NCBI GenBank assembly: GCA_041745855.1
Contig: JBGTIE010000737.1
Span: 1 to 35,026 of the forward strand
Length of the DNA: 35,026 bases
Direction: 5' to 3'
Source: Lysobacterales bacterium
Lineage (GTDB): Bacteria; Pseudomonadota; Gammaproteobacteria; Xanthomonadales; SZUA-5
Below the pieces are notes generated by a model. The model did not search any database and had not been told where the DNA came from. It worked only from the letters and a program-made list of their open reading frames with translations. Positions 8,312-31,004 of the stretch are shown here, piece after piece; the first letter of the stretch is position 1; the number at the start of each line of letters is the position of its first letter. A program made the translations under genes and the position numbers.

Positions 8312-8315
8312 AGTT

Positions 8316-8722: not shown

Positions 8723-8738
8723 GAAGCGCCAGCCAGCT

Positions 8739-9892: not shown

Positions 9893-9956
9893 TTTAAGAA
9901 TTCCAGGATCGGCTGAATGACTTGCGCAGGCTTTCGCGAGCGCTGAAAACCGCAGC

Positions 9957-11714: not shown

Positions 11715-14700
11715 GCAAGCACCTCCGCCGTTTCAAACATCCGGTCCATTTCCTCGATCAACTCGGTACTGAAACGGCGCCGCCAGATACCCGCGCCTGC
11801 ACTCAGGCCGACTGCGCGCACGAACACGTACCAGCAATCGCCCAGATCACGCGCCGGCGCATAGTCGTCCAATCGGCGCCCCAGATAGCGGTGCAGGGCG
11901 ACGCTGTAGAGCAGGGCCTGCAGCCCGTAGTGATGCGTCTGCATGGCATCTTCCAGGCGCTGCTGCCCATAGTCCGAAAGCGAAACACCCAGGAAATTCG
12001 TCTTGTAGTCGAGTACGTGATAGCGCCCGTCCCAGGCGAAGACCAGATCCACAAAGCCCTTCATCAGACCATTGAGCACCACCGGTCCGCCGCTTGCTGG
12101 CCACCAGGAGCTCAATCCGTGCTTGGCGAGAATCCGGGGCAGTCGATCCCAACGGGCCCCTTCAAGGCTGAACGCAAACTCGAACTCGGCCCGCTGGTCC
12201 TGCACACTCAGGTGTGCCAGGCGCAAGCCAGGCGCGAGCTGGGTCTGTACCGTACGATCGAGTAGCGTCGCAATCTCTGTCAGCAGTGAACTGGACACGT
12301 CGTCCGGCAACCGGACCGCATGATCTTCAAGTGCAGCGGCGATTCGATCAGTTTGTAATGCGAAATCCATCTCGCCCCGACCGCTCTCAAGCAGGTCGTG
12401 GACGGCGTTGCCAAACCGCGGACCCTTGATCTGTTGCAGTGCGACCAGGGCCGGATGGGGCACGTCGTCCAGGTCCATCACCGGGGATTGCTCGAATGCG
12501 GGCTCGTCTTCGGCTGCACGCAGACTGTCCGTGGCGGTAGGGAGATGCCTGACCAGACTGCTGAAGCTGTACAGACCGTAGTACGGACGAACATCGGGCA
12601 GCGGTGCCCTGGATGTGCGCGCGGGCGGACGGTCGGCATGCTCCCGGTAGCGGGACTCGGCCGCATTCTCCCGATTGATCGCCAGGCCCGGGATGGCAGT
12701 AGCCAGGGCCTCCCAGCTGCCGCGCTGGTGCAAAGCCGCTCCCAACAACACCTCGAGCGCGCCGCGCTCATGATCGGTACTGTCCTCGCTGGGCGACAGA
12801 TCATCGAAGGCATACAGATGCGTCGCCCGTACCGCCCGGGTCACCGCAACATAGAGTTGGCGCATTCTTTCCTGCAGGCCCTCGCGCTGCTCCTGCAGCT
12901 TGTGCGCATCGAAGTCTGCCGAGCCCAGGTCCAGGCAGCGCCGGTTTTCGCTGTCATGGAAGCGCGCAATCGACTTGCGCGCGTCATGCACCGGTGGTTT
13001 CCGGTAGCGCCAGGCCATCGGTACGAACACAACCGGAAATTCCAGCCCCTTGCTGGCATGGATGGTCAACAGTTGCACACGTTGTGCCTCACTCTCGATC
13101 CGCAGTTGCATCTCACGGCCGGCCTCGTGCGCGTCGGCACCATCGCGGCGCAGCTGAATCAGGCGGGCATAGAGTTCGTGGCCACCGAAGCATTCGGCCG
13201 CATGTTCCTGCAGCACCTCGCCGATATGGCGCAAGTCGGTCAGCGCGCGCTCGCCGTCCGGCGCAGACAGCAGTCGCGGCGCCTGTTCCAGCACGATGGC
13301 TTCGATCGCGGCGAGTATGCCTCGGCTGTCCCACAGCGCTCGCCACGCGGCGAATCGCTCCAGTTGACGCTCCCAGCGCGACTCCTCCGCCGCCATCAGG
13401 CTCAGTTCGGCTGCTGTCATGCCCAACAGACGGGTCGCCAGCGCGCCCCGCAAGGCATAGCTGTCATTCGGATGGATCAGTGCGTGCAGCAAGAGTTGCA
13501 GATCGTCGGCCCATTCGGTGTTGAGCACATCGGCCTTGCCCGCGCCCACCACCGGTACGCCCCTGGCGATCAGTTGTGCGCGCAACTTGCGGATCTGCGC
13601 GTTGGTGTCGAGCAGTACTGCGATCTGCCCTGGCGCGATGCGCTCTGCCTTGTCCTGCGCGCCTGCGCGATTGAGCAGCGTGGCGATGTCGTTGGCGCAG
13701 GCGGTCAGGACCTGCTCGTCTCGGTCGCCCTTGTTGTTTGCTTCGGTTTGCAGCAGGCGCAACTGCAGCGGCGGATTGCCGTTCGTCCATTTATCCGGTT
13801 CGCCGGGCTGAACTTCAACATACTTGATGCCGCTGGCAGCGAAAGCCGTGGCGCTGGCCAGCGCGTACAGCCTGTTGAGCGCGGTCAGCAGCTCCGGATG
13901 GGACCGGTAGTTGTGCCGTATCGACAGGATTCTGTCCTCCGGCAGCGCATTGCAAACGCCCAGATAGGTGTGAATGTCGCCGCCGCGAAAGGCGTAGATC
14001 GACTGCTTCGGATCACCGATCAGAATCAAGCTGCGTGCGCTGGTCCAGGCGCCAGCATCTTTGCCTGGCCCGGATGTTTCATGAACGTTCGTCGCAGTAG
14101 AAGGATCATGAAACATCCGGGCTAGATGGATGCGCCGGAAAATCTCCCACTGTCGACCATCGGTGTCTTGAAACTCGTCGATCAGCGCTGCCGGCCAGAC
14201 GTCGGCCAGGTGTCTGGCGAGCGCCTCGCCCTGGGCGCCATGCAGACGCTCGTGTACGGTCTCGATCAGGCGGCTAAAGGTGGTCTCGCGACGCTGTTCC
14301 AGCCGCCGTGGCAGCTCGGCTGCAACAAAGCGAACGGCGTCGGCGCTGAGCAGGGCCAGATTGAGGTCTTGCTGATGGCGCTGGGCCTTGACCCACCGCT
14401 GCAGCGCCTGGATCAGCGGGTGACTCGCCAATGCCCCCGGCCGGTCATTACTCGTCTGGTCCTCAAGCTTGTTGGCAGCCAGGTACTCGGTGAGCTTTTC
14501 CATACCCTCGAAAGCTTCCGTGATCGTCGCGCCCTCGCCGGAGTTGCGCTCAACATATGCGGCGAAAGTTTCCAGAAGACTGCGCAGCGTGCGCGCCTTC
14601 ATGTTGAATAGCGCGGTATCGGCCAACAGTGCCCGCAACGCGGTCGGACCGTGCGGTGCGCGCAAGGGCTGCGGTATGTCGAAGCAGTTGCTCGCGGGTT

Positions 14701-15325
14701 GCAGCACCCTTGCGTCTGGCATCGCCAGCACCGCCTCGACCAGGGCGGTCAACTTCTGCAGGTCGGACTTTTCGCCTGCGATCACCGGCAGATCATCGGC
14801 GGAACTGCCTAGAAAACGCAGGCGCCAGTAGTCCTGCACGCACTCGCGCACCAGCGCCGGCTCGTCGACAATCTCGCCGAGCACGAAGGGTGCGCCAGAA
14901 TTGAACGGGAAGTCGGTCAGCACGCGCCGACAGAAGCCGTGAATGGTCGAGATCGGTGCCAGATCGATATCGGCCAGTGCCGTTCGCAGCCGAACCAGCA
15001 GACGTTCGCGCCCCTCGGTGCGTGCGTGCCGGTCCAGAAAGTCCGTCAGCTGGATATCCGGCAGCGTGCTCGCCGTGTCGCCAACTCGGGTTAGGTACGT
15101 CTCGGCGCTGAGCAAGCGCAGACGAATTCGCGCCTTCAGTTCCTGCGCCGCCGCCTCGGTGAAGGTGGTCACCAGAATCTGCCGCACCGCCAGACCGCGC
15201 TCGATCAGCAAACGCAGGTAGAGCAGGGCGATGTTGTAGGTCTTGCCCGTACCGGCACTGGCTTCGATCAACGTCGCGCCGGCCAGATCCATGCTGCGCC
15301 AGTCCAGTTCGGCCGGCTTGCTCAT
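11711..15325 (-). CDS. recB: Exodeoxyribonuclease V beta subunit RecB (helicase-nuclease)
   Basis: UvrD-type motifs (ASAGTGKTYNIA, IDEFQDTD), 1204 aa. C-terminal RecB nuclease motif GFVDLVF...YHVLDYKTN. ATGA overlap with recC at 15322-15325. Confidence 0.95.
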   Translation of the reverse strand: MSKPAELDWRSMDLAGATLIEASAGTGKTYNIALLYLRLLIERGLAVRQILVTTFTEAAAQELKARIRLRLLSAETYLTRVGDTASTLPDIQLTDFLDRHARTEGRERLLVRLRTALADIDLAPISTIHGFCRRVLTDFPFNSGAPFVLGEIVDEPALVRECVQDYWRLRFLGSSADDLPVIAGEKSDLQKLTALVEAVLAMPDARVLQPASNCFDIPQPLRAPHGPTALRALLADTALFNMKARTLRSLLETFAAYVERNSGEGATITEAFEGMEKLTEYLAANKLEDQTSNDRPGALASHPLIQALQRWVKAQRHQQDLNLALLSADAVRFVAAELPRRLEQRRETTFSRLIETVHERLHGAQGEALARHLADVWPAALIDEFQDTDGRQWEIFRRIHLARMFHDPSTATNVHETSGPGKDAGAWTSARSLILIGDPKQSIYAFRGGDIHTYLGVCNALPEDRILSIRHNYRSHPELLTALNRLYALASATAFAASGIKYVEVQPGEPDKWTNGNPPLQLRLLQTEANNKGDRDEQVLTACANDIATLLNRAGAQDKAERIAPGQIAVLLDTNAQIRKLRAQLIARGVPVVGAGKADVLNTEWADDLQLLLHALIHPNDSYALRGALATRLLGMTAAELSLMAAEESRWERQLERFAAWRALWDSRGILAAIEAIVLEQAPRLLSAPDGERALTDLRHIGEVLQEHAAECFGGHELYARLIQLRRDGADAHEAGREMQLRIESEAQRVQLLTIHASKGLEFPVVFVPMAWRYRKPPVHDARKSIARFHDSENRRCLDLGSADFDAHKLQEQREGLQERMRQLYVAVTRAVRATHLYAFDDLSPSEDSTDHERGALEVLLGAALHQRGSWEALATAIPGLAINRENAAESRYREHADRPPARTSRAPLPDVRPYYGLYSFSSLVRHLPTATDSLRAAEDEPAFEQSPVMDLDDVPHPALVALQQIKGPRFGNAVHDLLESGRGEMDFALQTDRIAAALEDHAVRLPDDVSSSLLTEIATLLDRTVQTQLAPGLRLAHLSVQDQRAEFEFAFSLEGARWDRLPRILAKHGLSSWWPASGGPVVLNGLMKGFVDLVFAWDGRYHVLDYKTNFLGVSLSDYGQQRLEDAMQTHHYGLQALLYSVALHRYLGRRLDDYAPARDLGDCWYVFVRAVGLSAGAGIWRRRFSTELIEEMDRMFETAEVLA

Positions 15326-18300
15326 GACTGGCTCCCGGACCAGGCCGTGCCCTGCAGCAGTTCCATGTGGAGCGCCGCCAACTCGGTGAACCGCCGGTGT
15401 GCTGGCGTCCCCGCTTGCAGGAAGCTGTCATTGGCGGCCAGGACACGGTTGTAGCCCGGACTGTAATCGCGCTCGCCGGTGCCGAAGTCGGGCGCCCAGA
15501 CCTTGCGGGCCTTGCCCAGCGGATCATTCTTTCCCTCCGCCAATTCCAGGGCATAGGCGAAGCTGGTCGCCGGAAAATAGCTGCCGGCGGTCGTTTCCGC
15601 GGTCAGATACTGCTCCAGCAGCGTGCTCAGACTGGCGCGCAGCAACGCCGGATCGTCCGGGAACTGGTCCAGATCGTGCCGCACGCAGCGCAGTTCCTTC
15701 TTTATCGTTTTCAGATACATCAATGCCACTCGGCAGCGGCAATCGGGTCGGCTGATCCGCAAGGCCGCCCACTGCAGAAACAGTGGCAGCAGCTTCGAGT
15801 AATTCACGCTCTTCGAATTGACAACCTTCACCAGCCACAGCTCGTCGCCACTGCGATACACCTCGGTCAGTTCGCCAATGACCCGCAAACCTGCGATGTC
15901 CAGATCAATCGCTACCGGCGCAGCCTCGGCCGCACCCTGCGCAAAGGGCGGCAGGCTGCGGACGCCATCCAGCAGTACTTGGGCCTCTTCGCGCAAGGCC
16001 TCATAGGCCCTTTCGCCCAGCGCGCCTGCCGGCAACTGGCCGGAATAAAGCAGCTGCGCCGGCGGCTGCGCCGGGATCTCCCGCCGGCCCGCGGCAATCG
16101 TCTGCCCCAACAGCAACAATGGCGTTTGGTCGAGCGTTTCCCTGCTGCTGGTCAGTGGCTCCACATCGGTATCGCCATCCTCACTGAGCGTTTCCCGCGA
16201 CAGCGCCAGGGCATGCAGACAGAGCCACTGCGCCGGCTTGGCATAGAAGTCGCAGACGGACCGCAACTCGACCGCCGCGGCGGCGCTGGCGTGCGGAAGC
16301 CGGGGTGCGTCTTGCAGGAACACCCAGTCCTGGTCGGCCGATTGGCGGCACGCGGCGGCGAATTCCATGGAGTAGGAAAACCAGCGCGGATAAGTGTCGG
16401 CCGTAGCCCCGGCCGGCAGGAAATAGCGCGCGTCGAAAGGCTGCAGTGCATGTCGGAGCAGCCAGGGCCGGTCGATCTGCGGATCGGATTCGTCGATCTC
16501 ATGCACCTGATCCAGAAAGCGCATCAACTCGGCCAGCGGCAGCGCCGGGTTGCGCGGCTTGCCGTCCTGCACGCCCTCGCCGACCCAACTCAAGTGGATC
16601 GCATCGCGGGCGCTCATCAGCGCTTCAAGGAAGAGATAGCGATCCTCCATCCGGTTGACCCGATCTCCCAGCCGCGGATGTTGCTGCATCAGGTCCAGTT
16701 GGTTGTCGCTACGGACGCGCGGATACTCACCGTCATTCAATCCCAGCAGCGCAATCACCCGAAACGGAATCGCGCGTTGCGGCACCATTCCGCAGAAAGT
16801 GATGCCCCCGGCCAGGAAAGGTTGCCGTTCGGGCACCCCGTCCAGCGCCTGGCCCAAGGCCTCGTGAACCACGGCCCATTTCACCACCGGATCCACCCCG
16901 GCGTTGTCGGCTTCCCGTCCCAGCCCCGTCACGACCCGTTCCAAGGCGGTCAGCGCCGCCTGTTCGTCGGCGTCTTGCCAATCAGCCAGGAACAGCCCTT
17001 CTATCCAGATCCGCAGGCACTTGCTCCACTCGCTCAGCGGGCGCGGCGTTCCGGTCTGCTCGCGCCAGTCACGCAGCAGATCCAGCAGCGCCCACAATGC
17101 CGCTAATCCCTGTGCGTCGGGGCCGTTGACCGGGTCGGCCGGCAGCATGCCATCGAGCAGCCATTCGCCGCCTTCCCGCCCAAGCACGAAGCCCGCGGCC
17201 ATCCGGTCGAATCCGAAGTCAAAACTGTTGGCGCCGACTTCGGCCGCGCCAAAGTCGGCCTTCATCGGGCCATCCAGCCCCCAGGCGACATGGCTGCGCT
17301 GCAACCAGCGCTCCACCGCCGCCAGTTGCGAGCTGTCCAGCTTCAGCCGTCGCATGACCGCCGGCAGACTCAGCAAAGCAAGCACCTGCGAGCGCGTGAT
17401 GCGTTGAGTTGGCAACTCCAGCAACTGCGCAAAGGCAGTCAGCAAGGGATGGCTGCGGCTGAGCGCCACATCGGCCAGATGAAAGGGCAAGACTTCACCG
17501 GAGCGCCCGGGCTGACCGAACACCGCCGGAATCAGCGGCGCGTACACGGCCATGTTGGGCGCCATCACAACGATCTGCCGCGGCTGCAGATCCGGTTGCC
17601 GCGTCAACTGGTCCAGCAGCGCATCTTTCAGCACTTCCAACTCGCGCAAGCGCGTGTGGCAAAGGTGGATTCTCAGCGTAGCGTCGGCGCGCGCTGCATC
17701 CGGCGGCGCGGTTGACCAACTCGGTTGCAGGGTGCGGATGCTGTCCTGAAGCTGCTGCAGCAATCGCGAAGGCGCCTGCTCCGCCTGCAGTTCGGCATCC
17801 ACGCAGTCGCGATCGTCACTTGCCGAATCCAGTGCATTGAGCAGCAGCGAATAATGCTGACCCAGCCGTCCCAACGAGGCCAACAACGGATGTTTCAACG
17901 CCAGAAAGGCGCCGCCGTCCAGTGATGTGGCGAACTGGTCGCGGCGCACCCGCAGGTCTTCCCAAAGTTCCCGGCAGGGGTCAGGGAAGTACACATGGAC
18001 ATCGCGGCTGACCGAAAGCTGCTGCAGCGCCGTCAACACATCCGGCGGCAGATGGCTCAGGCCAAACACATGCAGCGCCGGCTGGTCCGGGTCGGCAGGC
18101 ATCGTGGAGAGCCGTTCGAGCAGTCGGCGCATGCGCTGACCACGATGGCCCTGGCCTATGCCCTGCAGTATTCGTCGCCACAGCTGACCCTGCCAATGGC
18201 CGAGGACCGGCATCGCCGGATCCGCGGCCGCCTCTCCAAGCCCCCAAAGGCTCAACCAGTCGCGCCGATAAACCAGGTACTGACCGTACAGACCGGCCAG

Positions 18301-18696
18301 TCGATCGGCCAACTGGAAGCGTCGCCGACCTGAGTCCGCCCCGCCCAGATAGGCCGCCACCTCGCCGTCATCCAGTTCGGCCAGCAATTCGTAAATCCGC
18401 CAGCGCAGCGCCGGTCGACGGTAGGGAAGGATCGCGATTGCCGCACTCCCCAGCACTGACCGCGCCAGCATGTCCAGCCACTCGCTCGGAAGCAGCATGT
18501 CCAGATTCGCCGCCACCCGCGGCAGCGACGCCAGCCGCCGCTCAGCCAGCCACAGCGTCAGCCAGCGCTTCATCCCCAGATGTCCCACCAACACCGTCTG
18601 CCCGGCCAGCGCCGATCGAGGCCGCTGCCTGTGCAAACGCGCCGCCAGCATGTCAGCCAGCGATTCGATTCTGCTGCTGCGGTAGATATGGAGCAT
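15322..18696 (-). CDS. recC: Exodeoxyribonuclease V gamma subunit RecC
   Basis: 1124 aa with the typical N-terminus MLHIYRSSRIESLADML. First gene of the coupled recC-recB-recD operon. Confidence 0.93.
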   Translation of the reverse strand: MLHIYRSSRIESLADMLAARLHRQRPRSALAGQTVLVGHLGMKRWLTLWLAERRLASLPRVAANLDMLLPSEWLDMLARSVLGSAAIAILPYRRPALRWRIYELLAELDDGEVAAYLGGADSGRRRFQLADRLAGLYGQYLVYRRDWLSLWGLGEAAADPAMPVLGHWQGQLWRRILQGIGQGHRGQRMRRLLERLSTMPADPDQPALHVFGLSHLPPDVLTALQQLSVSRDVHVYFPDPCRELWEDLRVRRDQFATSLDGGAFLALKHPLLASLGRLGQHYSLLLNALDSASDDRDCVDAELQAEQAPSRLLQQLQDSIRTLQPSWSTAPPDAARADATLRIHLCHTRLRELEVLKDALLDQLTRQPDLQPRQIVVMAPNMAVYAPLIPAVFGQPGRSGEVLPFHLADVALSRSHPLLTAFAQLLELPTQRITRSQVLALLSLPAVMRRLKLDSSQLAAVERWLQRSHVAWGLDGPMKADFGAAEVGANSFDFGFDRMAAGFVLGREGGEWLLDGMLPADPVNGPDAQGLAALWALLDLLRDWREQTGTPRPLSEWSKCLRIWIEGLFLADWQDADEQAALTALERVVTGLGREADNAGVDPVVKWAVVHEALGQALDGVPERQPFLAGGITFCGMVPQRAIPFRVIALLGLNDGEYPRVRSDNQLDLMQQHPRLGDRVNRMEDRYLFLEALMSARDAIHLSWVGEGVQDGKPRNPALPLAELMRFLDQVHEIDESDPQIDRPWLLRHALQPFDARYFLPAGATADTYPRWFSYSMEFAAACRQSADQDWVFLQDAPRLPHASAAAAVELRSVCDFYAKPAQWLCLHALALSRETLSEDGDTDVEPLTSSRETLDQTPLLLLGQTIAAGRREIPAQPPAQLLYSGQLPAGALGERAYEALREEAQVLLDGVRSLPPFAQGAAEAAPVAIDLDIAGLRVIGELTEVYRSGDELWLVKVVNSKSVNYSKLLPLFLQWAALRISRPDCRCRVALMYLKTIKKELRCVRHDLDQFPDDPALLRASLSTLLEQYLTAETTAGSYFPATSFAYALELAEGKNDPLGKARKVWAPDFGTGERDYSPGYNRVLAANDSFLQAGTPAHRRFTELAALHMELLQGTAWSGSQS

Positions 18697-18880
18697 CCGT
18701 CAGTCCCCCTGCTGGACCGGCCACTGGTACGGACTGTAACAGTCGGCTTCGAGCCCTCCGATAGTCCGCTCAGAGACGACAGATTCTGTCGTAGCAATGG
18801 CGATACTCGGCGGGTCCAGCAGCATCGAGAGATCGCATGACCAGTTTTCAGTCGACCAATCGCCCCTTGTCTGCTATAGC
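18654..18880. repeat. Direct repeat DR-L: recC codons 1-14 plus about 185 nt of recC leader/upstream region
   Basis: 18654-18746 matches 23495-23587 at 89/93 by hand alignment. The rest aligns more loosely (about 70 %) with 23588-23720. Confidence 0.85.
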
Positions 18881-18947
18881 CCAGTCAGGAACTATTGCAG
18901 CAGCGCCGCAAGGCGCATCCGATCAGCGCATGCACAGGGGAGCATGA

Positions 18948-19790
18948 ATGACTGAAGCACTGCAGCGTCTGTGTCGGGACAATCATCTTGCGAAGGCCTT
19001 TCTGAGCCTGGCTAATGGTAGCGACGGCACCAGTCGCGCCAGCACATTCAACGATTTTCACCGCACGCTGAGCAGTGATGGCTACATGCTCGGTCACGAT
19101 GAATCCCTGGACTTGATGCGCGAGTTGGAATCGGCAGGCGCAGGCGTGCTCCACGATGCCGATCAGCCGCATTCGGCACGGATCGAGTGGAAGCCGGATC
19201 TGGCCACGGTCGCAGCGTTGGCCCTGGGAGTGCCGGCACGACAAGCACAAGTCACCTCGCATCCGAATGGGTACGATGCATCGCCGGCTCTTGCACCCCA
19301 GCCCACATCGCTGAACCCGGCGGGGCGGGAGTCAGGCAAGTTCAATCTGCCCTCAGGCGCGTCGATAGAGATCAGGCTTGCGGGAACCGTGCGCGCAGAC
19401 GATCGCGAAGCCTTCCTGGACGGTGTGTTGGGTTGGCTCGCTCAGCGCCTGCTCAGTTCCCCTGCCGAGGCCGAAGTCACGCTGGTCGACGAGCCGGATG
19501 ATGAAGACGTCGAATCACAGGCTGAAATCGATGACTCGGCTGCAAGGGTGGCAGATCAGCCATTCGAAGCGCTCACCGAGCCGCTAGAGCAGGAAGTCGA
19601 CAGCCTGGGCGAACTGGCGCATCTAGTCATCGCCCGCGCGCGGAAGCGGGGCCCACATTCTGCTTCTTTGCTCACCCCGTCGAATTCTCTCCGGGCAAGC
19701 AAAATGCTACTAAGCGAATTATTTCAACCAGTTACATGCGTTTCACGTGAGGCCAGCCAATTGGGAGGTTTCAATGGAAAGTCTCTTTAG
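18948..19790 (+). CDS. Hypothetical acidic protein (280 aa)
   Basis: Long ORF with a plausible codon pattern and a D/E-rich segment (VDEPDDEDVESQAEIDDS). It overlaps the helicase start by 17 nt. No motif recognised. Confidence 0.5.
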   Translation: MTEALQRLCRDNHLAKAFLSLANGSDGTSRASTFNDFHRTLSSDGYMLGHDESLDLMRELESAGAGVLHDADQPHSARIEWKPDLATVAALALGVPARQAQVTSHPNGYDASPALAPQPTSLNPAGRESGKFNLPSGASIEIRLAGTVRADDREAFLDGVLGWLAQRLLSSPAEAEVTLVDEPDDEDVESQAEIDDSAARVADQPFEALTEPLEQEVDSLGELAHLVIARARKRGPHSASLLTPSNSLRASKMLLSELFQPVTCVSREASQLGGFNGKSL

Positions 19791-22413
19791 CTATTTTCAG
19801 GAGAATGGCTGGTCCATTGTTCATCGGGAAGAGCGCGCAGGGAGAATTGGAGAAACCTTTCCTAGCGACGATCTTGGACTGAGCGACGGCGCACGAAAGC
19901 TCATTTACGCAAACGGCATCTACGGGCACCAACGGGAAGCAATTCGAGCTTTCTCGAGCGGGGAAAACGTTGCTATAACGACAGCGACAGCGTCGGGAAA
20001 GACGTTGGTTTTTAACGTGTGTGCAGCCGAACTGCTCCTGACTGGCAATCATACGATACTCGCACTTTATCCCCTGAAGGCACTTGGGAAGGAGCAAGCT
20101 CAACGCTGGAAGGCAATGCTCAAGAAGATAGGCCTTGAGAAATCTGTCGGCTACATTGACGGCAGTGTTGGCCAGCCCGAGCGACTTCGTATCTTAAAAG
20201 AATGCCGGGTATTGGTAGGCACGCCTGACATCTTGCATGCCTGGATACTCAGGCAGGGCGGGCAGGCGGATGTCGTTAGCTTCATCAGGAGGCTTAAGCT
20301 CCTGGTGATCGACGAAGCGCATTCATACACAAGCGTCTTTGGCAGTAATGCTGCCTATGTGTTCAGGCGTTTGGAGCATGCATGCCAGAATCTCGGTGGG
20401 AGTCTTCGTTATATCGCGGCTTCGGCGACGATGGACGCACCGCTCGCGCACTTGGAGAAGCTGACCGGGCGAACTTTCCGCGAAGTAGATGAGTCAACCA
20501 ATACGGCGCCGTTAGAACCCGTCAAGTTCATATGCGTCCGTCCCGGTGGAGGTGACGGTTTAACCGCGTTGGGAAATCTGCTTTCCTGTGCGTCGGAAAT
20601 TGAAGGTGCAAAAACGATTGCATTCGTTGATAGCCGCCAGTTAGCTGAACACGCAGCGGTCATAGCCGGACGCCGGAGCGACGCGCCGCCAGACGAGTTT
20701 GAACGCGACCTTGACGAAGCGCTTGATGAATTGAAGCTGCCCAAAGGCAAAGTGTTGCCGTATCGATCTGGTTACGCGGCGCAGGATCGAGAGGCCATTC
20801 AACGAGCGCTAACAAACGGGAAACTTCGAGCTGTCGTCAGTACAAGCGCGCTTGAACTAGGTATTGATATTCCTGGGTTGAATCTTTGCATACTCTACGG
20901 AATACCACCATCAGGAAGCAGCTTTCGACAGCGCTATGGGCGCGTGGGAAGAGACGCACCCGGTACCGTAGTCATTATTGACGATGGATCTCCTCGAGCA
21001 GTCGCGATATTTAAGGACCCAAGCATGATTTGGGCGCTGCCTCTTACCAAGAGCTCGCTCTATCTTCATAATCGACAGGCGCAGTATATCCACGCGATGT
21101 GTTTGGCCTCGCAAAATGGGGAAGACCAGGCCTTTGCCAAGGCGGGGTCTTCGTCGGCACGGCAATTTTCGCGCACGGGGCTTTTCCCTGACGATTTCAT
21201 TGCATTGTGTCAAGCTGAGCATCAGGGCTCAATACCTCAGGAGTTACAATATCTCCGAGATCTGAGTGGAGATAGTCCCAATCTCTCATTCCCGCTGCGA
21301 GACATTGGGCTTCAATTTAGGATTTTGAATCCGCAGCGGTTCGGGAGAGAGACGCTTGGCGATCTTTCGCACGCCCAGTTGATGCGTGAGGCCTACCCGG
21401 GCGCTATTTATTATCATATCGGAACCGCTTATCGTGTATTCCGAGTGTCACTGCGCGAGAGGGAGGTTCTCGTTCGCCGTGAAAAGCATTACTTCACTTC
21501 CGCAAAGAGGCTACCCAGCAAAATCTTCCCGGAATTCCGCAGCGACAAAGTCTTCTGTGATTTGACCCAAGGGACGATGAGGGTAGTTGAATGCGGATTG
21601 AATATTCGTGAGACTCTTGTTGGTTTTCGGGAGTTCCGCGGCGGGAACAGGTTCGATGTTGATTACCCGCTGGAACCCGCGCTCAGACTGTACTTTGATC
21701 AGAAGTACTTCTCTCGGAACTGGTCGACCTCCGGCGTCATTCTGACCCACCCGCAGCTCGCGATTGACGAAGTCGATCTCACCGTCGTCGCGAGCTTTGT
21801 GTTAGATGCGTTCTTGATGGAAATTCCGTTCGACCGTCAAGATGTTGGTGCAGGGGTAGACAAGATCCAGGTCGGCGAGCGTGGGCATCGTGAGGGCCAG
21901 TACTTTATATGCCTATACGATAAGCAGGCTACGCTGAGACTTTCCGGCGCAATTACGGAGAAAGGTGCCCTTAAGAAAGTTCTCGAGCGCGCACATGATT
22001 TGGCGAGTGGTATTGCCGGCATCGACGGAGGCCCGTCGGCAGCTGTCCTGAACGTACTGGAAGCGCTTGCGATGGAGTCGGCTGAGTTGCCTGTGACGAA
22101 TTCGGAGGCGGCGCTCTTGCCAACTTCAGATCGTTACGTTCCGGTTATTCGACCAGGCTCCATTGGGATCGATCCTACGCGCCAAGGCGAGGAGTTCCAC
22201 GTCACGAATGTCCTTTGGCACCCGATGTTTGGCCTCGCTTATCATGGCACTTATGTATCGGAGGAGCGTCGTGCAGTGGGTATAAATGGCAACGGACCTG
22301 CTCAAACCTTCGTGGCAGCTGAAAAGCTGCAGGGTATTCCTGGCTTGTCGTCAATGTCTTGGTATGACAAAGTAAAGGCGGCCGTGGTTAATGAAATCGA
22401 GGGTGAGTTTTAG
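19774..22413 (+). CDS. SF2 DEAH-box helicase, MrfA/YprA-like, with DUF1998-like C-terminal region lacking cysteines (879 aa)
   Basis: GGGAGG lies 5 nt upstream of ATG 19774. Motif I ATASGKT (19984-20004), motif II DEAH (20311-20322), motif VI QRYGRVGR. Post-helicase blocks AYPGAIYYHIGTAYRV...HYFTS and DRQDVGAG...QYFICLYDK follow. Confidence 0.85.
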   Translation: MESLFSYFQENGWSIVHREERAGRIGETFPSDDLGLSDGARKLIYANGIYGHQREAIRAFSSGENVAITTATASGKTLVFNVCAAELLLTGNHTILALYPLKALGKEQAQRWKAMLKKIGLEKSVGYIDGSVGQPERLRILKECRVLVGTPDILHAWILRQGGQADVVSFIRRLKLLVIDEAHSYTSVFGSNAAYVFRRLEHACQNLGGSLRYIAASATMDAPLAHLEKLTGRTFREVDESTNTAPLEPVKFICVRPGGGDGLTALGNLLSCASEIEGAKTIAFVDSRQLAEHAAVIAGRRSDAPPDEFERDLDEALDELKLPKGKVLPYRSGYAAQDREAIQRALTNGKLRAVVSTSALELGIDIPGLNLCILYGIPPSGSSFRQRYGRVGRDAPGTVVIIDDGSPRAVAIFKDPSMIWALPLTKSSLYLHNRQAQYIHAMCLASQNGEDQAFAKAGSSSARQFSRTGLFPDDFIALCQAEHQGSIPQELQYLRDLSGDSPNLSFPLRDIGLQFRILNPQRFGRETLGDLSHAQLMREAYPGAIYYHIGTAYRVFRVSLREREVLVRREKHYFTSAKRLPSKIFPEFRSDKVFCDLTQGTMRVVECGLNIRETLVGFREFRGGNRFDVDYPLEPALRLYFDQKYFSRNWSTSGVILTHPQLAIDEVDLTVVASFVLDAFLMEIPFDRQDVGAGVDKIQVGERGHREGQYFICLYDKQATLRLSGAITEKGALKKVLERAHDLASGIAGIDGGPSAAVLNVLEALAMESAELPVTNSEAALLPTSDRYVPVIRPGSIGIDPTRQGEEFHVTNVLWHPMFGLAYHGTYVSEERRAVGINGNGPAQTFVAAEKLQGIPGLSSMSWYDKVKAAVVNEIEGEF

Positions 22414-22415
22414 CC

Positions 22416-23432
22416 ATGACAGAAAAGCAGGTTGTTGTCCGCAGGCTGGACTTGCCGGGAGCTATAGCTTGCCTGAAGGAAGCGCAAATAGTCGCGGAGC
22501 ATGCCAGTGTGATCGTTGTTGATTTTGGGGGATGCGAGTGGGCGGAGCCACTGGGCATGCTGGTTTTCGGCGCGTCGCTACGAGACCTTCGTGCAGAAAC
22601 TAAGAAAATAAGACCCGAAGTTAAGTTTCGTGCAATCGGATATGAGGGGCGCGGCTATCTCGCACACATGGGTTTGTTCAAGCTCTTCGGGCTCAATTAC
22701 GGCAAAGCACCCGATGAAGCGGAGGGCGGTTCGCGCTATGAACCAATCCGGTTCATTGATCTTGCCGAGCTTGAGCGAAATGCGGCCGAGCAATATCAGG
22801 ATACGCACGAATATATTGAGAAAACCTGTCAAGGGATGGCCAGCTTGCTTGTTCAAGGTGGCTCTGAGATTCTGTCTGAAACTCTGGGGTACTGCTTGCG
22901 AGAGATTGTCAGGAATGTCTTGGAGCATGCCCAGGTAAGTGGCTTGTGGTATTGCGGGCAATATTGGCCTCAGAAAGACAAGGTAGAGCTGGGTCTTTTC
23001 GATCTTGGGATGGGTGTTCGACGTGCATTGTCGCGCAACCCGCACATTGCGGTCGAATCCGACCAAGACGCGATTCGATTGGCAATCAAGCCAGGAATTT
23101 CCGGAGTGGTTTTTCAGGGTGCGCGGCAAATGCGCAATGATGGATGGCAGAATTCTGGCTTTGGCTTATATATGACGAGTCAGATCGCGGCGCAGTATGG
23201 GCAGTTTCGTTTGGGGAGCGGCGATTCGCTGATGACGTTTGACGCCAAAGGGCAGGAATTTCAGGAATTCAGGTTGAAAGGAACGGCGGTGTCGATAAGC
23301 CTCCGTCCAAGCAAGGTCACCAAGCTGGCCGAGCGGCTTTCGGAGCTTCGGAAGGCTGCGAAGTCGGGTAGTTCGGGTGATGACGGGACGACCGTTCGCT
23401 CGGCGTCGGCCTATGGTCGGGGAAAGACGTAA
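22416..23432 (+). CDS. GHKL-type (histidine-kinase-like) ATPase with STAS-like N-terminal region (338 aa)
   Basis: N-box EIVRNVLEH, G1 box DLGMG and G2 box NSGFGLY. N-terminal segment VIVVDFGGCEWAEPLGMLVFGASL. The start is 2 nt after the helicase stop. Confidence 0.75.
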   Translation: MTEKQVVVRRLDLPGAIACLKEAQIVAEHASVIVVDFGGCEWAEPLGMLVFGASLRDLRAETKKIRPEVKFRAIGYEGRGYLAHMGLFKLFGLNYGKAPDEAEGGSRYEPIRFIDLAELERNAAEQYQDTHEYIEKTCQGMASLLVQGGSEILSETLGYCLREIVRNVLEHAQVSGLWYCGQYWPQKDKVELGLFDLGMGVRRALSRNPHIAVESDQDAIRLAIKPGISGVVFQGARQMRNDGWQNSGFGLYMTSQIAAQYGQFRLGSGDSLMTFDAKGQEFQEFRLKGTAVSISLRPSKVTKLAERLSELRKAAKSGSSGDDGTTVRSASAYGRGKT

Positions 23433-23494
23433 ATGCCCTGTGCCTGCATGAGGGCGGTGATCGGCTTCGCCTCGGTTCCAGCGCGTGGTAAGGC

Positions 23495-23720
23495 CAGCCA
23501 GCGATTCGATTCTGCTGCTGCGGTAGATATGGAGCATCGGTGAGTCCCCCTGCTGGAACTGCCACTGGTACGGACTGTAACAGTCGGGGTCGAGACGGCC
23601 GATTGTCGGGGGCGAGGCGACAGATTTGGTCGCCGCAGTATCGATACTTCGGCCAGTTGTAGATTTCACAGCGCGCGGGGGAGATTTTGGTCGACCGATT
23701 GGCCGTGGTCTGATATAGAG
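23495..23720. repeat. Direct repeat DR-R: orphan copy of recC codons 1-14 (23496-23537, minus strand) plus leader/upstream region
   Basis: The minus strand encodes MLHIYRSSRIESLA, then diverges from recC. See DR-L. Confidence 0.85.
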
Positions 23721-23782: not shown

Positions 23783-26700
23783 ATGCCAGCTGAAACTAAA
23801 GGTCGCGACCTCTTCATCGTAGACAACAGCGTGTCAGGCTGGACCTGCCTTCGCTATCTGGAGGAATGGGCTGGCATTGCGAAGAGCTTTGACATTGCAA
23901 CTGGCTACTTCGAGATCGGTGCGTTGCTCGCCCTCGATGGTAAGTGGCAGCAATTGGAGAAGATCAGGATCCTGATGGGCGCGGAAACAATGCAATTTTC
24001 TCGGAAAGCATTGCTTGAAGCTGTGCGGTCCCGCGCAGCAGAAGTATTGGATCGCAGCATTGAGTGCGACAAGACGGCAAACCCCTTCCTGAACAACGTG
24101 CCGGCAATTTTGGAGGCACTCCGCTCACGCCAGATCGAGTGCCGTGTCTACGACAAGGACAAGTTCCATGCAAAGGTATACATCACTCATGCCAAGTTGG
24201 AGGTTGTCGGGTCGCAGGCTCTCGTCGGATCCAGTAACTTCACCCCTCCTGGACTTACCCAAAACATCGAACTGAATATACAGGTGCAGAGTGCGCGCGA
24301 GGTGGCACAGCTGCAGGAATGGTTCGAGGTGCACTGGAACGACGCTAGCGACATCACTGACACTGTCATCGAGACGATCGATCGTCACACGCGCCCTTAC
24401 AAACCATTCGAGGTGTACGCGAAGGCGCTACAGGAGTTCTTCCGCGGTCATGAATTGACAGCAAGCGAGTGGGACGAGACTCGCTCGAAGATGTTTCCGC
24501 ATATCGACCGCTATCAGAAGGAAGCCTACTGGGCGCTGATGAAGATTGCGCGCCAGCACGGTGGCGCGTTCCTCTGCGACGGCGTCGGGCTCGGCAAGAC
24601 CTTCGTCGGCCTGATGCTGATCGAACGCCTGGTGCTGCACGAAGGAAAGCGCGTCGTGCTTTTTGCACCAAAGGCAGCGAAGGAGGGAGTGTGGGAGCCG
24701 CATTTGCGTGACTGGTTACCACACATCGGCGGTGTAGGTGGCGGCGCTGACTTTAGCAACCTGGCTGTCTTCAGCCACACGGACCTCGGCCGCAAAGGCG
24801 ACTTTCCCGAGCGTTTTCGAAGGATTGCGGAGTTGGCGGACGTCGTTGTGATCGATGAAGCACACCACTTTCGCAATCCGGGTCGCCCACGTAGGGAAGA
24901 CGACGACGTTGAGCCATCCCGCTACCATCGTCTTTATGACCTGCTCGACAGCACGGCACGGCCAAAGACACTCTTCATGCTCACTGCAACGCCAATCAAC
25001 AACCGACTGAGCGACTTCCGGCATATGGCAGAGCTGTTCACGCGCCGGGACCAGACGTATTTCGCGCGAACGCTGGGCGTCAACAATCTGACTGCGCACT
25101 TCAACCAAGTGGAAAAGGCGCTCCGAAGCCAGGTCGGCCATGACGTGAGCGATGTCGCCGAACACATCACCGAAGCTCAGGAGATTCTGGCGAGCGATGA
25201 GGTCTTCCGTCATCTGGTAGTCCAGCGTAGTCGCGCCTATGCACGAGAAAGCCAGATCCGCGAGACAGGCAAGGCGGCCGCCTTTCCGGATCGAAGATCT
25301 CCCCAGGTGGCCGGTTATTCAATACGGAAGAGTTACGGACGTCTGCTCGACATGTTCGAGAACGCTTTCCAAGGGAAGAATCCGCTTTTTGCATTGCCGA
25401 TGTACTACCCGTTGGCTTGGTACAAGGGGCCAGATACCAGTATTGACCCGCTGGAGCAGGGTCGGCAGAAGCAGGTTGTTGGTCTCATTCGAACCAACTT
25501 TCTCAAGCGCTTCGAAAGCTCGGTCGTGGCGTTCGAGCTTTCCTGCGACCGACTGCTACAGAAGCTCATGGCGTTTCTGGAGGTACATAGTAAGACAGTA
25601 ACCGAGAAGAAGAAGCTGGAGCGCTGGAAAACGGACAATGCCGAGGCGCTCGGCTACGCGCGTCAGAGGCAGCTGGAGCTTTGGGGTGATAGCCGCGACG
25701 AGTCCGAAGACGAAGACATTGTGCCTCAGGAAATGCTTGATGCCGTCGAGCGTCTTGACCGCAATGAGTACGATTTGTCAGCCATGATGGCAGAAACGTT
25801 TCGGGACCTCGACCAGCTAACTCACTTTGTAAGTGAAGCGAAGAAGTTCCAGCCAAAGCACGACGACAAGCTGCAGAAGCTCATCCGCCTACTCAAAACC
25901 AAGGATCTCGCCGGCCAAAAAGTGTTGATCTTCACCGAGTTCGCCGACACAGCGCGCTACCTGAAGCGCGAACTGGACCGGGCCGGCATCGACGGCGTTG
26001 CCCAGGTGGACAGCGCAACCAAGGCCAACCGAGCCGATGTCATTCAGCGCTTCGCGCCTTACTACAACAGCACTTCCTCGAAGGCGCTAGCGAAGAAGGG
26101 GGACCCTGAGACCCAGATACTCATCTCGACCGATGTTCTCTCGGAAGGCCTGAACCTTCAGGATGCTTCCCGGATGATCAACTACGACATCCACTGGAAC
26201 CCGGTCCGCCTGATGCAGCGCATCGGCCGCGTGGACCGGCGCATGAATCCGGAAGTCGAGAAACGATTTATCGCCGATCACCCCGAAGTCGCCTCGTCGC
26301 GCGGGAAAGTGAGCTTCTGGAACTTTCTGCCGCCCGACGAGTTGAATGCAATTCTTACTCTCTACACAAAAGTTACCCAGAAGACTCTGCTGATTTCCAA
26401 GACCCTCGGCATCGAGGGTAAGAAGCTGCTCACACCTGACGACGACTTCGACGCTCTCAGGGAGTTCAACCACGCCTATGAAGGCACAAAGACCGCCGTT
26501 GAGGACATGCATCTTGAGTTTCAGTCGCTGCTGCAGGCTGACCCGGAGCTGGAGTCCCGCCTGCGACGGCTGCCAGGCGCCACTTTTAGCGGTCGCAAGT
26601 GTCCTGCGAAGGGTGCGCGAGGAGTGTTCTTCTGCTACGCGCTCCCGGCGCTCGACAAGGAAGCCGGCGAATTCACACAAGAGGCCGGTACCACCCGCTG

Positions 26701-26932
26701 GTACCTCTTCGATCTCGAACGGGACGCAATTCTGGAGGACCCTGGCGAGATCGTTGGCAGCATCCGCTCCAAACCCGAGACGCCGCGCAGGTGCACTACC
26801 GGGCAGAAGACCCTCGTCGAGCTCCGCGCAAAGCTTGAGAAGCACATCAAGAACACCTACCTGAGGCGGGTCGACGCGCCGGTCGGGGTGAAGCCGGCGC
26901 TTCGCTGCTGGATGGAACTCAACGAGGGATAG
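23783..26932 (+). CDS. PLD-family nuclease domain fused to SNF2-family helicase (1049 aa)
   Basis: N-terminal HKD-type motif FHAKVYITHAKLEVVGSQALVGSSNFT (about 24167-24244). SNF2 motifs DGVGLGKT (24581-24601), VIDEAHHFRN (DEAH 24854-24865) and LTATPINN. C-lobe LIFTEFADTARYL, STDVLSEGLNLQD and HWNPVRLMQRIGRVDR. Confidence 0.9.
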   Translation: MPAETKGRDLFIVDNSVSGWTCLRYLEEWAGIAKSFDIATGYFEIGALLALDGKWQQLEKIRILMGAETMQFSRKALLEAVRSRAAEVLDRSIECDKTANPFLNNVPAILEALRSRQIECRVYDKDKFHAKVYITHAKLEVVGSQALVGSSNFTPPGLTQNIELNIQVQSAREVAQLQEWFEVHWNDASDITDTVIETIDRHTRPYKPFEVYAKALQEFFRGHELTASEWDETRSKMFPHIDRYQKEAYWALMKIARQHGGAFLCDGVGLGKTFVGLMLIERLVLHEGKRVVLFAPKAAKEGVWEPHLRDWLPHIGGVGGGADFSNLAVFSHTDLGRKGDFPERFRRIAELADVVVIDEAHHFRNPGRPRREDDDVEPSRYHRLYDLLDSTARPKTLFMLTATPINNRLSDFRHMAELFTRRDQTYFARTLGVNNLTAHFNQVEKALRSQVGHDVSDVAEHITEAQEILASDEVFRHLVVQRSRAYARESQIRETGKAAAFPDRRSPQVAGYSIRKSYGRLLDMFENAFQGKNPLFALPMYYPLAWYKGPDTSIDPLEQGRQKQVVGLIRTNFLKRFESSVVAFELSCDRLLQKLMAFLEVHSKTVTEKKKLERWKTDNAEALGYARQRQLELWGDSRDESEDEDIVPQEMLDAVERLDRNEYDLSAMMAETFRDLDQLTHFVSEAKKFQPKHDDKLQKLIRLLKTKDLAGQKVLIFTEFADTARYLKRELDRAGIDGVAQVDSATKANRADVIQRFAPYYNSTSSKALAKKGDPETQILISTDVLSEGLNLQDASRMINYDIHWNPVRLMQRIGRVDRRMNPEVEKRFIADHPEVASSRGKVSFWNFLPPDELNAILTLYTKVTQKTLLISKTLGIEGKKLLTPDDDFDALREFNHAYEGTKTAVEDMHLEFQSLLQADPELESRLRRLPGATFSGRKCPAKGARGVFFCYALPALDKEAGEFTQEAGTTRWYLFDLERDAILEDPGEIVGSIRSKPETPRRCTTGQKTLVELRAKLEKHIKNTYLRRVDAPVGVKPALRCWMELNEG

Positions 26933-26936
26933 GACC

Positions 26937-29900
26937 ATGTCAACCAACCACCGCGCCGCATTGGCGGACATCAAGACATTCCCCCAGCTCATCGCCTACC
27001 TGCGCGACGAGATGGGCTGGCCGATTGCCCGCGACTCGTTCGAGGACGTGGACGATCTGTTCTACGACTTCACTGCCGACGAGCTCGGTATCGACCCGAA
27101 AACCGCCGCCAAGATCACCGAGATCAAGCGCCTCCGGCCACTCTCGCCCTGCCAGCCCTGGGGCATTTTCTTCGTCAAGTTCGAGCCGAAGAAGCTCCCG
27201 GTGGTGGCGCTGCGCCGCATCCTGAGCCAGGTGGCGCTCAAGAAGCGCGCCTCCGCCAACAGCGCCGACCACACTGCCTGGGCTGCCGACGACCTGCTCT
27301 TCGTCTCCAACTACGGTGAGGGCAGCGAGAGACAAATCAGCTTCGCGCATTTTGCGAAGCCGCAGGACGGCCACGACCTCCCCACCCTCAAGGTGCTCGG
27401 CTGGGACAACCGCGACACAGCATTGCATCTCGACGCCGTTGCGAAGGAGCTGACGCAGCATCTGGCCTGGCCCGACGACGACGCCGATGTCGAGGCCTGG
27501 CGCAAAGGCTGGCGCGGCGCCTTCACCCTGCGCCACGGCGAAGTCGTCACCACATCGAAGGAACTCTCGATCCGCCTGGCCAGGCTGGCGGGTGACATCC
27601 GCGACCGCATCAAGTCCGCGCTCGCCATCGAAACCGACCGCGGCCCGCTCACCAAACTGATGAGGACGTTCCAGACGTCGCTGGTTCACGATCTCGACAC
27701 CGACGGCTTCTCCGACATGTACGCGCAGACCATTGCCTATGGTCTGCTCTCGGCGCGCATTGCCGACCCGCACAAGAAGACCGTCGACGACTTCGCCGGC
27801 CACATGCGCACCAACCCGTTCCTGCGCGAGCTGATGGAGACCTTCCTCAAGGTCGGCGGGCGGCGCGGCAAGGCGGGCGGGCCGGGCATCGACTTCGACG
27901 AGCTGGGCGTGAGCGAAGTCGTGCAGTTGCTCGACGACGCCAACATGGAAGCTGTCGTCCTCGACTTCGGTGACAAGAACCCGCAGGAAGACCCGGTCAT
28001 CCACTTCTACGAGTTGTTCCTCAAGGAGTACGACGCCAAGAAGCGGATGCAGCGCGGCGTCTTCTACACCCCACGCCCGGTGGTCTCCTACATCGTGCGC
28101 TCGGTGGACGAGCTGCTGCGCACCGAGTTCGGCCTCGACGACGGTCTCGCCGACACGACCACCTGGGGCGAGATGGCCAAGCGCCACAAGGATCTGAAGA
28201 TTCCCAAGGGCGTCTCACCTGACCAGCCCTTCGTGCAGATCCTCGATCCCGCTACTGGCACCGGAACCTTCCTGGTCGAGGTCATCGACATTATCCACAA
28301 GACGATGGTCGCTAGGTGGAAGGCGCAAGGCCACCGCCAGAAGAAGGTCGCGTCGCTGTGGAACGAGTACGTGCCCGAGGCCCTATTGAAGCGCTTGCAT
28401 GCCTACGAACTGTTGATGGCGCCCTACGCCATCGCGCATTTGAAGGTCGGGCTCAAGCTCTACGAGACCGGGTACCGCTTCGGCAGCGATGAACGGGCGC
28501 GCATCTACCTCACGAATGCGTTGGAGCCGGCGCACGACTTCTCGGGGACCTTTGAGTTCGCGATTCCGGCGCTCGCGCATGAGGCGCGTGCAGTCAACGC
28601 AATCAAGAGCCACCAACGTTTCACCGTCGTGATCGGCAACCCACCGTATGCGGGCGTATCGTCAAATACGGGCGAATGGGTCACTCGTCTGATAAAGGAT
28701 TACTACTTTGTAAATGGGGAGCCATTGGGTGAACGCAATCCGAAATGGCTGCAGGATGACTATGTCAAATTTATCCGGTTTGGCCAATGGCAGTTGACTA
28801 ACAGCGGGATTGGTCTGTTCAGTTTCATTACGAACCACAGCTACATCGACAACCCGACGTTCCGAGGATTCCGTCGGAATTTTGCAACGCAGTTTTCAAA
28901 TGTTGCCGTTCTCGATCTTCATGGAAATTCAAAGAAAAAAGAGTCGTCTCCAGACGGAACGACCGATGAAAACGTGTTCGATATCCAGCAAGGGGTGGCC
29001 ATCTTTTCCGCTTGGAAATCGCAAGGGACGAGCCGGAACATTTTGCACGGCGACTTGTTTGGGACACGCCAAACGAAATACGCTCGATTGCTCGGAAACT
29101 CTTATGCTTCGACTAAATGGACAGCGGTAGCGAGTTCCGAACCATATTACCTGTTTGTGCCACAATCAGAAGACTTGCGTGCTGAATACGAAGCAAGTAT
29201 GCGCATCACTGACCTTACTCTAACGAATGGCTGGGGCGTCGCGACGAGGAAGGATTACCTGCTGGTGGATTTCGATGGCGACGATCTGCGATCTCGGTTC
29301 AACAAGATATTGGGCGGCACGGCAAATGAGGCCTATGCGCTCGGCCTGAAAGACAATCCGCACTGGAAGTTCTCTTCGGTCAAAGACCGGCTGGGGAAGA
29401 CTGTAGGAAAACGAGTCGTGAAGTATGCCTACCGCCCCTTCGACACCCGCTGGGTCTTTTACGAGCCGCTAATGATTGAAAGAGGAGACCATCGTTGGTC
29501 CATTGCACGGCACCTCTTCAACCTTGAGGACAATCTAAGCCTGCTCGTCAGTCGAACCGGCGCCGCCGCCGGTTCTCCTATGTGGGATGTTCTTTTCGTG
29601 GCCAACGGGATTAGTGATCTAAACCTTTTTCGGCGCGGGGGGGCGTTCATGTTTCCCCTTTATCTTGTGCCTGGCGACGATGAATTAGCATTCAGTTCAA
29701 CCAAGGCGCTGAATCTATCTGTTCAGTTTCTCAATGCGCTTTGTTCGCAGCTTAAATTGAAACCGAGCACGACAGGCCTGCCTGACGGCCTGACGCCCGA
29801 AGACATCTTCCACTACGCCTACGCGGTGTTTCACAGTCCCGGCTACCGGAGCCGCTACGCGGAGTTTCTGAAGATTGATTTCCCGCGCCTTCCATTGACA

Positions 29901-30956: not shown

Positions 30957-31004
30957 ACATGCTACTTAGTCCAACCAGATTGGCAAGACGAGGGAGAGTG
31001 GAGG

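Follow-up and report, generated by a model that had tools for sequence, protein, structure and literature searches.

In the window analyzed here, by which we mean the complete 35,026-nucleotide (nt) contig JBGTIE010000737.1 of a metagenome-assembled genome (MAG) of a Lysobacterales bacterium (assembly GCA_041745855.1), the start of the repair gene recC is present twice, once at the functional gene and once as an orphan fragment 4.8 kb away. We consider it probable that the second recC start is a scar of homology-anchored, recombinase-independent recombination, which would have stacked two alternative recC-adjacent island haplotypes on top of one another: one in which a left (L) leader runs into a gene that we call gene A, and one in which a right (R) leader runs into genes for a PLD-SNF2 helicase, a type IIG methyltransferase-specificity protein and a UvrD-type helicase. 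Most likely, then, it is not the mark of a self-mobile element. As part of the same reading, and with the same degree of confidence, the right copy (23495-23718) would be the dead remnant of a second recC 5′ end together with its divergent promoter and leader region. Coordinates of all features are collected in Table 1.

A first-pass annotation, made from the letters alone, had reported that 18654-18746 recurs at 23495-23587 with 89 of 93 positions identical, and both direct reading and alignment confirm this, with the two repeat cores in direct orientation. Identity declines in steps with distance from the coding sequence. No mismatch occurs in the first 44 nt (18654-18697 and 23495-23538; 100% identity), a block that holds one base 5′ of the ATG, recC codons 1-14 and the opening base of codon 15; the remaining 49 nt of the core contain four mismatches (92%), and beyond the core identity is ∼68% up to 18879/23718, in agreement with the weaker homology that had been noted to about 18880/23720. 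BLASTN of the two regions, which the annotation had proposed as a check, returns a single 227-nt alignment (18654-18879 against 23495-23718) at 77.5% identity with an E value of 1.3e-45, and comparison with dinucleotide shuffles gives z=56 for the core and z=21 for the distal part, well beyond low-complexity chance. By the same test z is -0.7 for the 94 nt that precede the core on the left, indicating that the onset of homology is abrupt at 18654/23495, which corresponds to recC codon 15. BLASTN detected no third copy of the leader in the window, only these two. As had also been described, the orphan start lies on the minus strand, encodes MLHIYRSSRIESLA and then diverges from recC. The open reading frame (ORF) that it opens is unrelated to recC past the fragment, and neither its product nor those of the other small ORFs around the leaders have an exact match in the protein collection. 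In one relative (L017) the RecC N-terminus is nearly identical, yet 8 of 42 nt differ; therefore, that the two copies here match at 43/43 positions argues for a recent common origin and not for constraint.

The stepped identity could also be accounted for if the two copies had long since diverged to ∼68% throughout, and a recent tract from the functional recC start had homogenized the proximal 44-93 nt of the orphan. Such an older duplication followed by gene conversion would explain the three tiers and the fact that the perfect 44-nt block begins exactly at the homology boundary, and the copies are close together on the same chromosome, as conversion would favor. However, an earlier event of a similar kind is still required to supply the second copy, four mismatches fall inside the supposed tract, and the joint to the tail of the neighboring module, described below, coincides exactly with the start of the repeat, tying that boundary to the arrival of the module. 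We therefore regard gene conversion as an unlikely origin of the pattern.

The DNA immediately 3′ of the orphan fragment, read along the minus strand, belongs to a unit that we refer to as the B-C module, after the two genes that it carries. Metagenome contigs from other samples (L002-L009), reached via variants of gene C, share 93-95% nucleotide identity with the window from 19673 to 23476/23483 and none beyond these limits. Comparison of the window with L002 and with a further contig, L010, allows the 3′ tail of the module to be traced to 23494/23495 (AAGGCC / AAGGTCC), so the recC fragment abuts the module tail directly, with at most 1-2 nt shared. The left end of the module lies 101 nt upstream of the helicase ATG, within the gene A ORF. 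Elsewhere (L002-L008 and L010) the module is found after an unrelated gene and immediately before brxE-brxA-brxB-brxC. Its GC content is ∼54% against flanks of 60-65% in the L009, L010 and L002 contexts, and 0.54 in the window against 0.62-0.64 for gene A and recBCD, recC-recB-recD itself being 64% GC. No inverted repeats are present at the module ends. Judged from these alignments, the B-C module is a discrete unit of 3.8 kb, shared horizontally and bounded on both sides by illegitimate joints: J1 (19672|19673), which truncates gene A, and J2 (23494|23495), which joins the module tail to codon 15 of the recC fragment (recC′). The bracketed DNA had previously been taken for one cassette, a view that does not hold, given that gene A is truncated and host-like in GC and that only 19673-23494 is horizontally shared. 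A transposon or insertion sequence (IS) was also considered and rejected: there is no transposase, the module ends lack inverted repeats and the duplication measures 227 nt. In L009 the module precedes a brxE gene interrupted by an IS66-family transposase (5000-5872), which replaces the sequence from ∼64 nt into brxE relative to L002.

Gene A has a host-like GC content of 0.62, distributed over the three codon positions in a coding-like manner (GC1/2/3 of 0.72/0.48/0.66). A word-index search returned no homologue, and we had considered the gene to be an ORFan or possibly a spurious ORF, an idea that was dropped when a full HMMER search detected a single relative, P0160, a 1136-aa protein with sigma-70 region 4 and Sel1 repeats. 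Residues 1-237 of gene A are collinear with residues 1-229 of P0160 (E value 5.7e-10 library-wide and 7e-18 pairwise), and the alignment ends ∼5 codons before the module boundary, indicating that gene A is a 5′ remnant cut at J1 at codon 242. P0160 itself resides in a defense island, 3′ of a gene 78% identical to the L009 gene that precedes the B-C module and 5′ of a DUF499 ATPase; therefore, these parts are alternative occupants of variable sites. The two contigs concerned, L097 (ENA ERZ27290319) and L009, come from the same assembly, and in them the mutually 78%-identical genes precede different cargo, namely the helicase-GHKL module in L009, and the 1136-aa gene A homologue followed by the DUF499 ATPase (PADLOC 9e-160) in L097, which points to a second variable site with alternative defense cargo. 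A three-gene system made up of A, B and C was rejected, as the L009 gene upstream of B-C is unrelated to gene A.

Of the two module genes, gene B encodes a YprA/MrfA-like DExH helicase that shows sub-threshold PADLOC matches to BrxHI, SngC and PsyrT. The product of gene C is a GHKL (histidine-kinase-like) ATPase-like protein with 278 homologues, some of which carry PF02518; PADLOC assigns it to no named system and returns only a weak match to the N-terminus of DrmA, and a homologue at 37% identity stands alone in a Pseudomonas context. The helicase-GHKL pair, without a named PADLOC system, is seen in the window (19774-23432) and in L002-L010, and may represent an uncharacterized defense or BREX-accessory module.

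The leaders provide the second line of evidence. The block …GTCTG.TATAG marks the end of the homology in both copies, at a distance of ∼183 nt from the recC ATG and with ∼65 nt left to the first island gene; it follows that two different islands meet the recC flank at one and the same position. Within the left leader, 81 nt upstream of the recC ATG, is a perfect palindrome, CGACAGAATCTGTCG, that is possibly an operator, and the right leader contains the variant CGACCAAATCTGTCG (recC-sense strand) at 23618-23632. The same element is found as CGACCGAATCTGTCG 70 nt upstream of recC in another Lysobacterales MAG with 63% RecC identity (L013/L018; 1440-1454 of L013). Support from this palindrome for genuine recC leaders is modest, because the motif occurs upstream of recC in none of the other 79 loci that we compared. 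A further palindrome, GACTGTAACAGTC, is found only at 18732-18744 and 23573-23585, counted as four matches where 0.31 are expected. Both palindromes are built from ACAG/CTGT half-sites in opposite arrangements, and they may be operators of some regulator; a palindrome-like site at 34328 is an isolated motif. Given their shared blocks, the reading that fits best is that each leader is a genuine recC upstream region and that the two stem from two lineages; for that reason at least one of them is plausibly heterologous. The earlier suggestion of a heterologous recC leader therefore remains plausible, with conserved blocks common to both leaders and a palindrome that is also present upstream of recC in the 63%-identity relative.

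Could the leader have been duplicated for its regulatory value? A copy, whatever its origin, might have been kept or captured since it places the PLD-SNF2, type IIG and UvrD genes under the operator and promoter of recC and gene A, and the homology does cover the conserved blocks and both palindromes and ends the same ∼65 nt short of the first island gene on each side. Yet a consensus scan finds no sigma-70-type promoter in either leader, leader RNA folding is no better than that of shuffled sequences (z about -0.4), the first palindrome is present in only 1 of 80 relatives, and the recC coding fragment is left without a role. Neither leader contains an intrinsic terminator, and no Rfam family matches the window; by our own reading only, the edge of the shared block may hold a weak rightward promoter, TCGACC-17-TATAGC/A. 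Selection for a duplicated promoter is in our estimation quite unlikely. More improbable still is a reading in which the recC leader acts as a portable docking and control sequence, with defense modules in this lineage traveling together with a copy of the recC start and a bidirectional promoter-operator containing the two palindromes. In that case the leader copy would supply the homology for RecA-mediated capture and stacking next to recC, a form of integron-like accretion without an integrase, and each module would come under the regulator of recBCD, tying defense expression to RecBCD status.

In order to place the duplication among relatives, we compared 80 Lysobacterales recC loci, with up to 10 kb upstream of each, obtained by a genome scan with a RecC alignment; a scan with the single RecC query gave no match. 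Exact look-ups of RecC and of the GTG-start helicase found no identical record, and the closest RecC N-terminus, from a Lysobacterales MAG, is 69% identical. None of the 80 loci contains an orphan recC start, and none contains homologues of the island genes of the window or of its flanks. The empty site that the first-pass annotation expected in related genomes was likewise not found in this set. Among the closest relatives, a heterogeneous range of neighbors is seen upstream of recC (sbcCD, formate dehydrogenase/nuo-like genes, glycosyltransferases, an FG-GAP protein and a giant surface protein), with no conserved synteny upstream of recC in the closest clade, and only one locus of the 80 (L013/L018) has a defense system, BREX brxL, directly upstream of recC. 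A family-wide defense hotspot at recC is therefore not supported, and the conserved hotspot that had been proposed upstream of recC is not seen. At L013/L018 (1-864) the 3′ end of brxL, a gene oriented towards recC, lies ∼660 nt upstream of the latter, with a small divergent ORF between them. Tandem repeats are located directly upstream of recC in L016 (9356-9775; 75-nt unit, 115-nt period) and in L020 (8670-9780; a long degenerate array). Scans of metagenomes with a degenerate MLHIYRSSRIE pattern and with a 26-nt leader pattern gave no match.

These comparisons also bear on whether the repeat core could be the attL and attR of a site-specific integrative element that inserts at the recC 5′ end and supplies a replacement start and promoter. 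Direct repeats that include the 5′ end of a conserved gene are what such an element would leave, the incoming copy would restore the gene, and the core holds the perfect palindrome GACTGTAACAGTC. However, neither the DNA between the repeats nor that next to them encodes an integrase, recombinase or excisionase domain, the repeats enclose a mosaic made up of one truncated gene and a module found elsewhere without them, and there is neither a similar insertion in the 80 recC loci nor a plasmid or phage match for 18654-23587. Searches of the window ORFs against Pfam, NCBIfam and PADLOC likewise detected no transposase domain, and no tRNA was found in the window, so the earlier statement that integrase, tRNA and IS elements are lacking holds for the scanned ORFs and the tRNA search. 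Integron cassette features are also missing, with no integrase and no Rfam attC in the window. The site-specific element is thus largely refuted, and we consider it the most improbable of the explanations weighed here.

The structure itself has independent support in the Logan k=31 unitigs of sequencing run SRR28170462, which match the window exactly. Unitig L001 (19812-23524) stops 30 nt inside the right repeat copy and unitig L011 (18668-19800) begins within the left copy; both break at the 44-nt identical block, which forms a two-in/two-out node of the unitig graph, and the unitigs alone do not link the four arms. An alternative resolution would join recC to the R leader and leave a 4841-bp circle or tandem array composed of the core, the L leader, gene A and B-C, or two strains could have been joined chimerically at the node. 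The graph permits both resolutions, a circle being permitted but not shown, and the window is a single MAG contig. Nevertheless, as the unitigs reproduce the flanks exactly, the joint between the gene C tail and the recC fragment is present in the raw k-mers (L001), and a recC fragment 3′ of gene C is real in any resolution. In addition, the two copies differ at 18698 and 18701, so that any k of at least 47, or single reads, can resolve the node. For this reason the linkage in the deposited contig is probably correct, as should be expected of a modern assembler, and the 4841-bp unit has no replication genes. An assembly explanation strikes us as slightly less likely than gene conversion.

Returning to the stacking of two haplotypes, we envisage that the donor DNA would have come from a closely related strain and carried its own recC start, leader and module, entering by one RecA-dependent exchange in recC or in the core and one illegitimate joint, J2. 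J1 could either have pre-existed in the lineage or have been acquired later. The exchange may have been (a) the single crossover of a circularized fragment, that is, Campbell-type integration, or (b) homology-facilitated illegitimate recombination (HFIR) with recC as the anchor. The mirror image would be equally compatible, with the recC′ fragment, R leader and PLD-SNF2 block as the incomer joined to the module tail. These variants share the single estimate given at the outset and are not ranked. The identity steps of 100%, 92% and 68% might then reflect nearly identical recC genes whose island-linked upstream haplotypes have diverged deeply, a crossover inside the core, or later gene conversion. 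In Escherichia coli, linear DNA can be circularized and integrated by a RecA-dependent single crossover, giving rise to duplications, and partial degradation, ligation and single crossover occurred ∼10 times as often as HFIR, whose joints showed 0-1 nt of microhomology (PMC3240628). Sequential displacement of the HFIR type has been put forward for the orphan arrays of the type VI secretion system (T6SS), Rhs and contact-dependent inhibition (CDI) (PMC5361080). The first-pass annotation had put forward Campbell-type integration, and in part this stands, as a direct duplication brackets foreign DNA without site-specific machinery; the pattern is indistinguishable from that of HFIR or of the reverse polarity. 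For the same reason, the claim that recC gained a new upstream region is possible and unproven.

Several points weigh against recombinational stacking. Perfect identity extends over only 44 nt, so that a crossover restricted to the core would have offered RecA a short substrate, and the drop from 92% to 68% needs an extra assumption, be it deep island-linked haplotypes or gene conversion. The 80 recC loci and two metagenome pattern scans yielded no empty site, no single-haplotype strain and no second example. It is the deposited assembly that links the four arms across the 44-nt node. Finally, whatever the order and direction of events, at least three joints have to be invoked.

As a likely consequence of the arrangement, one copy of a shared bidirectional control region would stand ahead of each defense block. 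From the orphan recC start, antisense transcription may extend into gene C, and the 93-nt near-identical repeats could permit rare RecA-mediated loss of the 4841-bp segment. The growth of defense islands without mobility genes is still argued mainly from population-level patterns, and this locus keeps the physical joints: a foreign two-gene module with an illegitimate junction on either side and, marking the stacking point, the start and promoter of a core gene in duplicate. If strain-level relatives confirm it, the locus would be a concrete case of homology-anchored, recombinase-free defense stacking next to recBCD. There is also a practical warning, in that an orphan recC pseudogene fragment can break assemblies and mislead annotation.

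Table 1. Positions of the duplicated recC start, the adjoining modules and other features of the window
Feature	Position	Strand	Description
Left (functional) repeat core	18654-18746	-	recC codons 1-14 and first base of codon 15, ribosome binding site (GGGGGA), proximal 5′ region
Right (orphan) repeat core	23495-23587	-	recC′ ATG at 23537; fragment end is the joint 23494|23495
ORF opened by orphan recC start	23537→23166	-	123 codons; antisense to gene C 3′ end; unrelated past the fragment
Left distal leader	18747-18879		∼68% identical to 23588-23718; ends in shared block GTCGACC..GTCTG.TATAG
Right distal leader	23588-23718		Contains palindrome variant at 23618-23632
Perfect palindrome	18777-18791		CGACAGAATCTGTCG; possible operator
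Second palindrome	18732-18744		GACTGTAACAGTC; distal end of core; other copy at 23573-23585
Gene A 5′ remnant	18948-19672	+	Codons 1-242; divergent from recC; annotated ORF continues to 19790 through module DNA
B-C module	19673-23494	+	3.8 kb; ∼101-nt upstream region, two genes, 62-nt tail; GC 0.54
Gene B	19774-22413	+	YprA/MrfA-like DExH helicase; 879 aa; Pfam DEAD and Helicase_C; PDB 6znp YprA 8e-45
Gene C	22416-23432	+	GHKL (histidine-kinase-like) ATPase-like protein; 338 aa; 278 homologues, some with PF02518
recC	15322-18696	-	1124 aa; first gene of recC-recB-recD; Pfam Exonuc_V_gamma 8e-67 and RecC_C
recB	11711-15325	-	
recD	9957-11714	-	
Outer defense block	23783-33614	+	Three co-directional large genes; Pfam and PADLOC
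PLD-SNF2 helicase	23783-26932	+	HKD and Snf2 7.6e-60
Type IIG/ISP-like methyltransferase-specificity protein	26937-30956	+	PADLOC REase_MTase_IIG 2.5e-200
UvrD-type helicase	31005-33614	+	NERD and UvrD 1e-28
Hairpin-repeat unit 1 (forward/reverse)	5257-5480/5555-5670		
Hairpin-repeat unit 2 (forward/reverse)	6309-6520/6635-6720		
Hairpin-repeat unit 3 (forward/reverse)	8336-8510/8611-8754		
Hairpin-repeat unit 4 (forward/reverse)	9030-9116/9238-9360		

Beyond the repeat, GC content varies from 0.49 to 0.66 within the outer defense block, and this variation suggests that the block is itself a mosaic. On the other side of recBCD, GC dips to 0.52 just downstream of recD (9500-10100), and the region 5250-9360 is occupied by dense clusters of a ∼28-nt hairpin repeat (GGAGTGCGGTAGCTTGCTACCGCTCT / GGCAGCTTGCTGCCGC) with a period of 56-62 nt. 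The clusters form four units, each consisting of a forward array, a spacer of ∼100 nt and a reverse array, and a 282-nt repeat is also present (6696-6977 and 8732-9013, 94% identical). The pattern resembles that of REP/BIME elements; ORFs in the region have no Pfam match, and there is no Rfam match. In addition, 3009-5231 on the minus strand encodes a protein with two AAA domains (CDC48/FtsH-like ATPase module).

How does the duplicated recC start compare with known systems? Elements of the SXT/R391 family integrate into the 5′ end of prfC and provide a replacement start and promoter, for which they need a tyrosine integrase and a short att core. Similar to prfC, recC is a conserved gene with an insertion at its 5′ end and would be kept intact by an element-borne start; in contrast, the integrase and short att core are not found here. 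The locus falls short of what defines an integrase-driven element, a transposon or an integron. Defense-island hotspots that are exchanged through flanking core genes without a recombinase are familiar from, for example, E. coli and Pseudomonas aeruginosa. The recC locus shares with them defense modules of differing GC content next to a core gene, the lack of mobility genes, and two islands that abut the flank at the same position. However, simple flank exchange replaces the island and leaves no duplicated flank, and a family-wide hotspot at recC is not supported here.

Closer parallels are found in Campbell-type integration in E. coli (PMC3240628), where the insert is flanked by direct repeats of the chromosomal homology, the start of one repeat coincides exactly with the novel illegitimate joint, no dedicated recombinase is involved and the joints have little or no microhomology. 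Unlike that case, only 93 nt are near-identical at recC and the rest is ∼68% identical, which fits only if the circle carried a diverged leader; moreover, no circle or empty site is observed, and the interior already has an earlier illegitimate joint, J1. In the sequential displacement arrays attributed to HFIR (T6SS effector-immunity, Rhs and CDI; PMC5361080), the newer module is placed next to the anchor and the older one is pushed outward. Those arrays differ from the recC locus, where a housekeeping repair gene provides its 5′ end and promoter region as the anchor, the modules are defense systems, and there are two copies of unproven polarity instead of an array. The likenesses include a conserved anchor (recC) beside variable modules without an integrase; a far-end illegitimate joint, J2, with at most 1-2 nt of microhomology; an outer module that keeps a conserved fragment (the 43-nt recC′ and R leader before PLD-SNF2), whichever of the blocks is the older; and an insertion coupled to deletion in the recipient, as gene A is cut at codon 242 relative to 1136 aa, at J1 and not necessarily in the same event. 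In this single case from one MAG, the duplicated recC start behaves like the scar of Campbell-type integration or HFIR and like the orphan fragments of displacement arrays.

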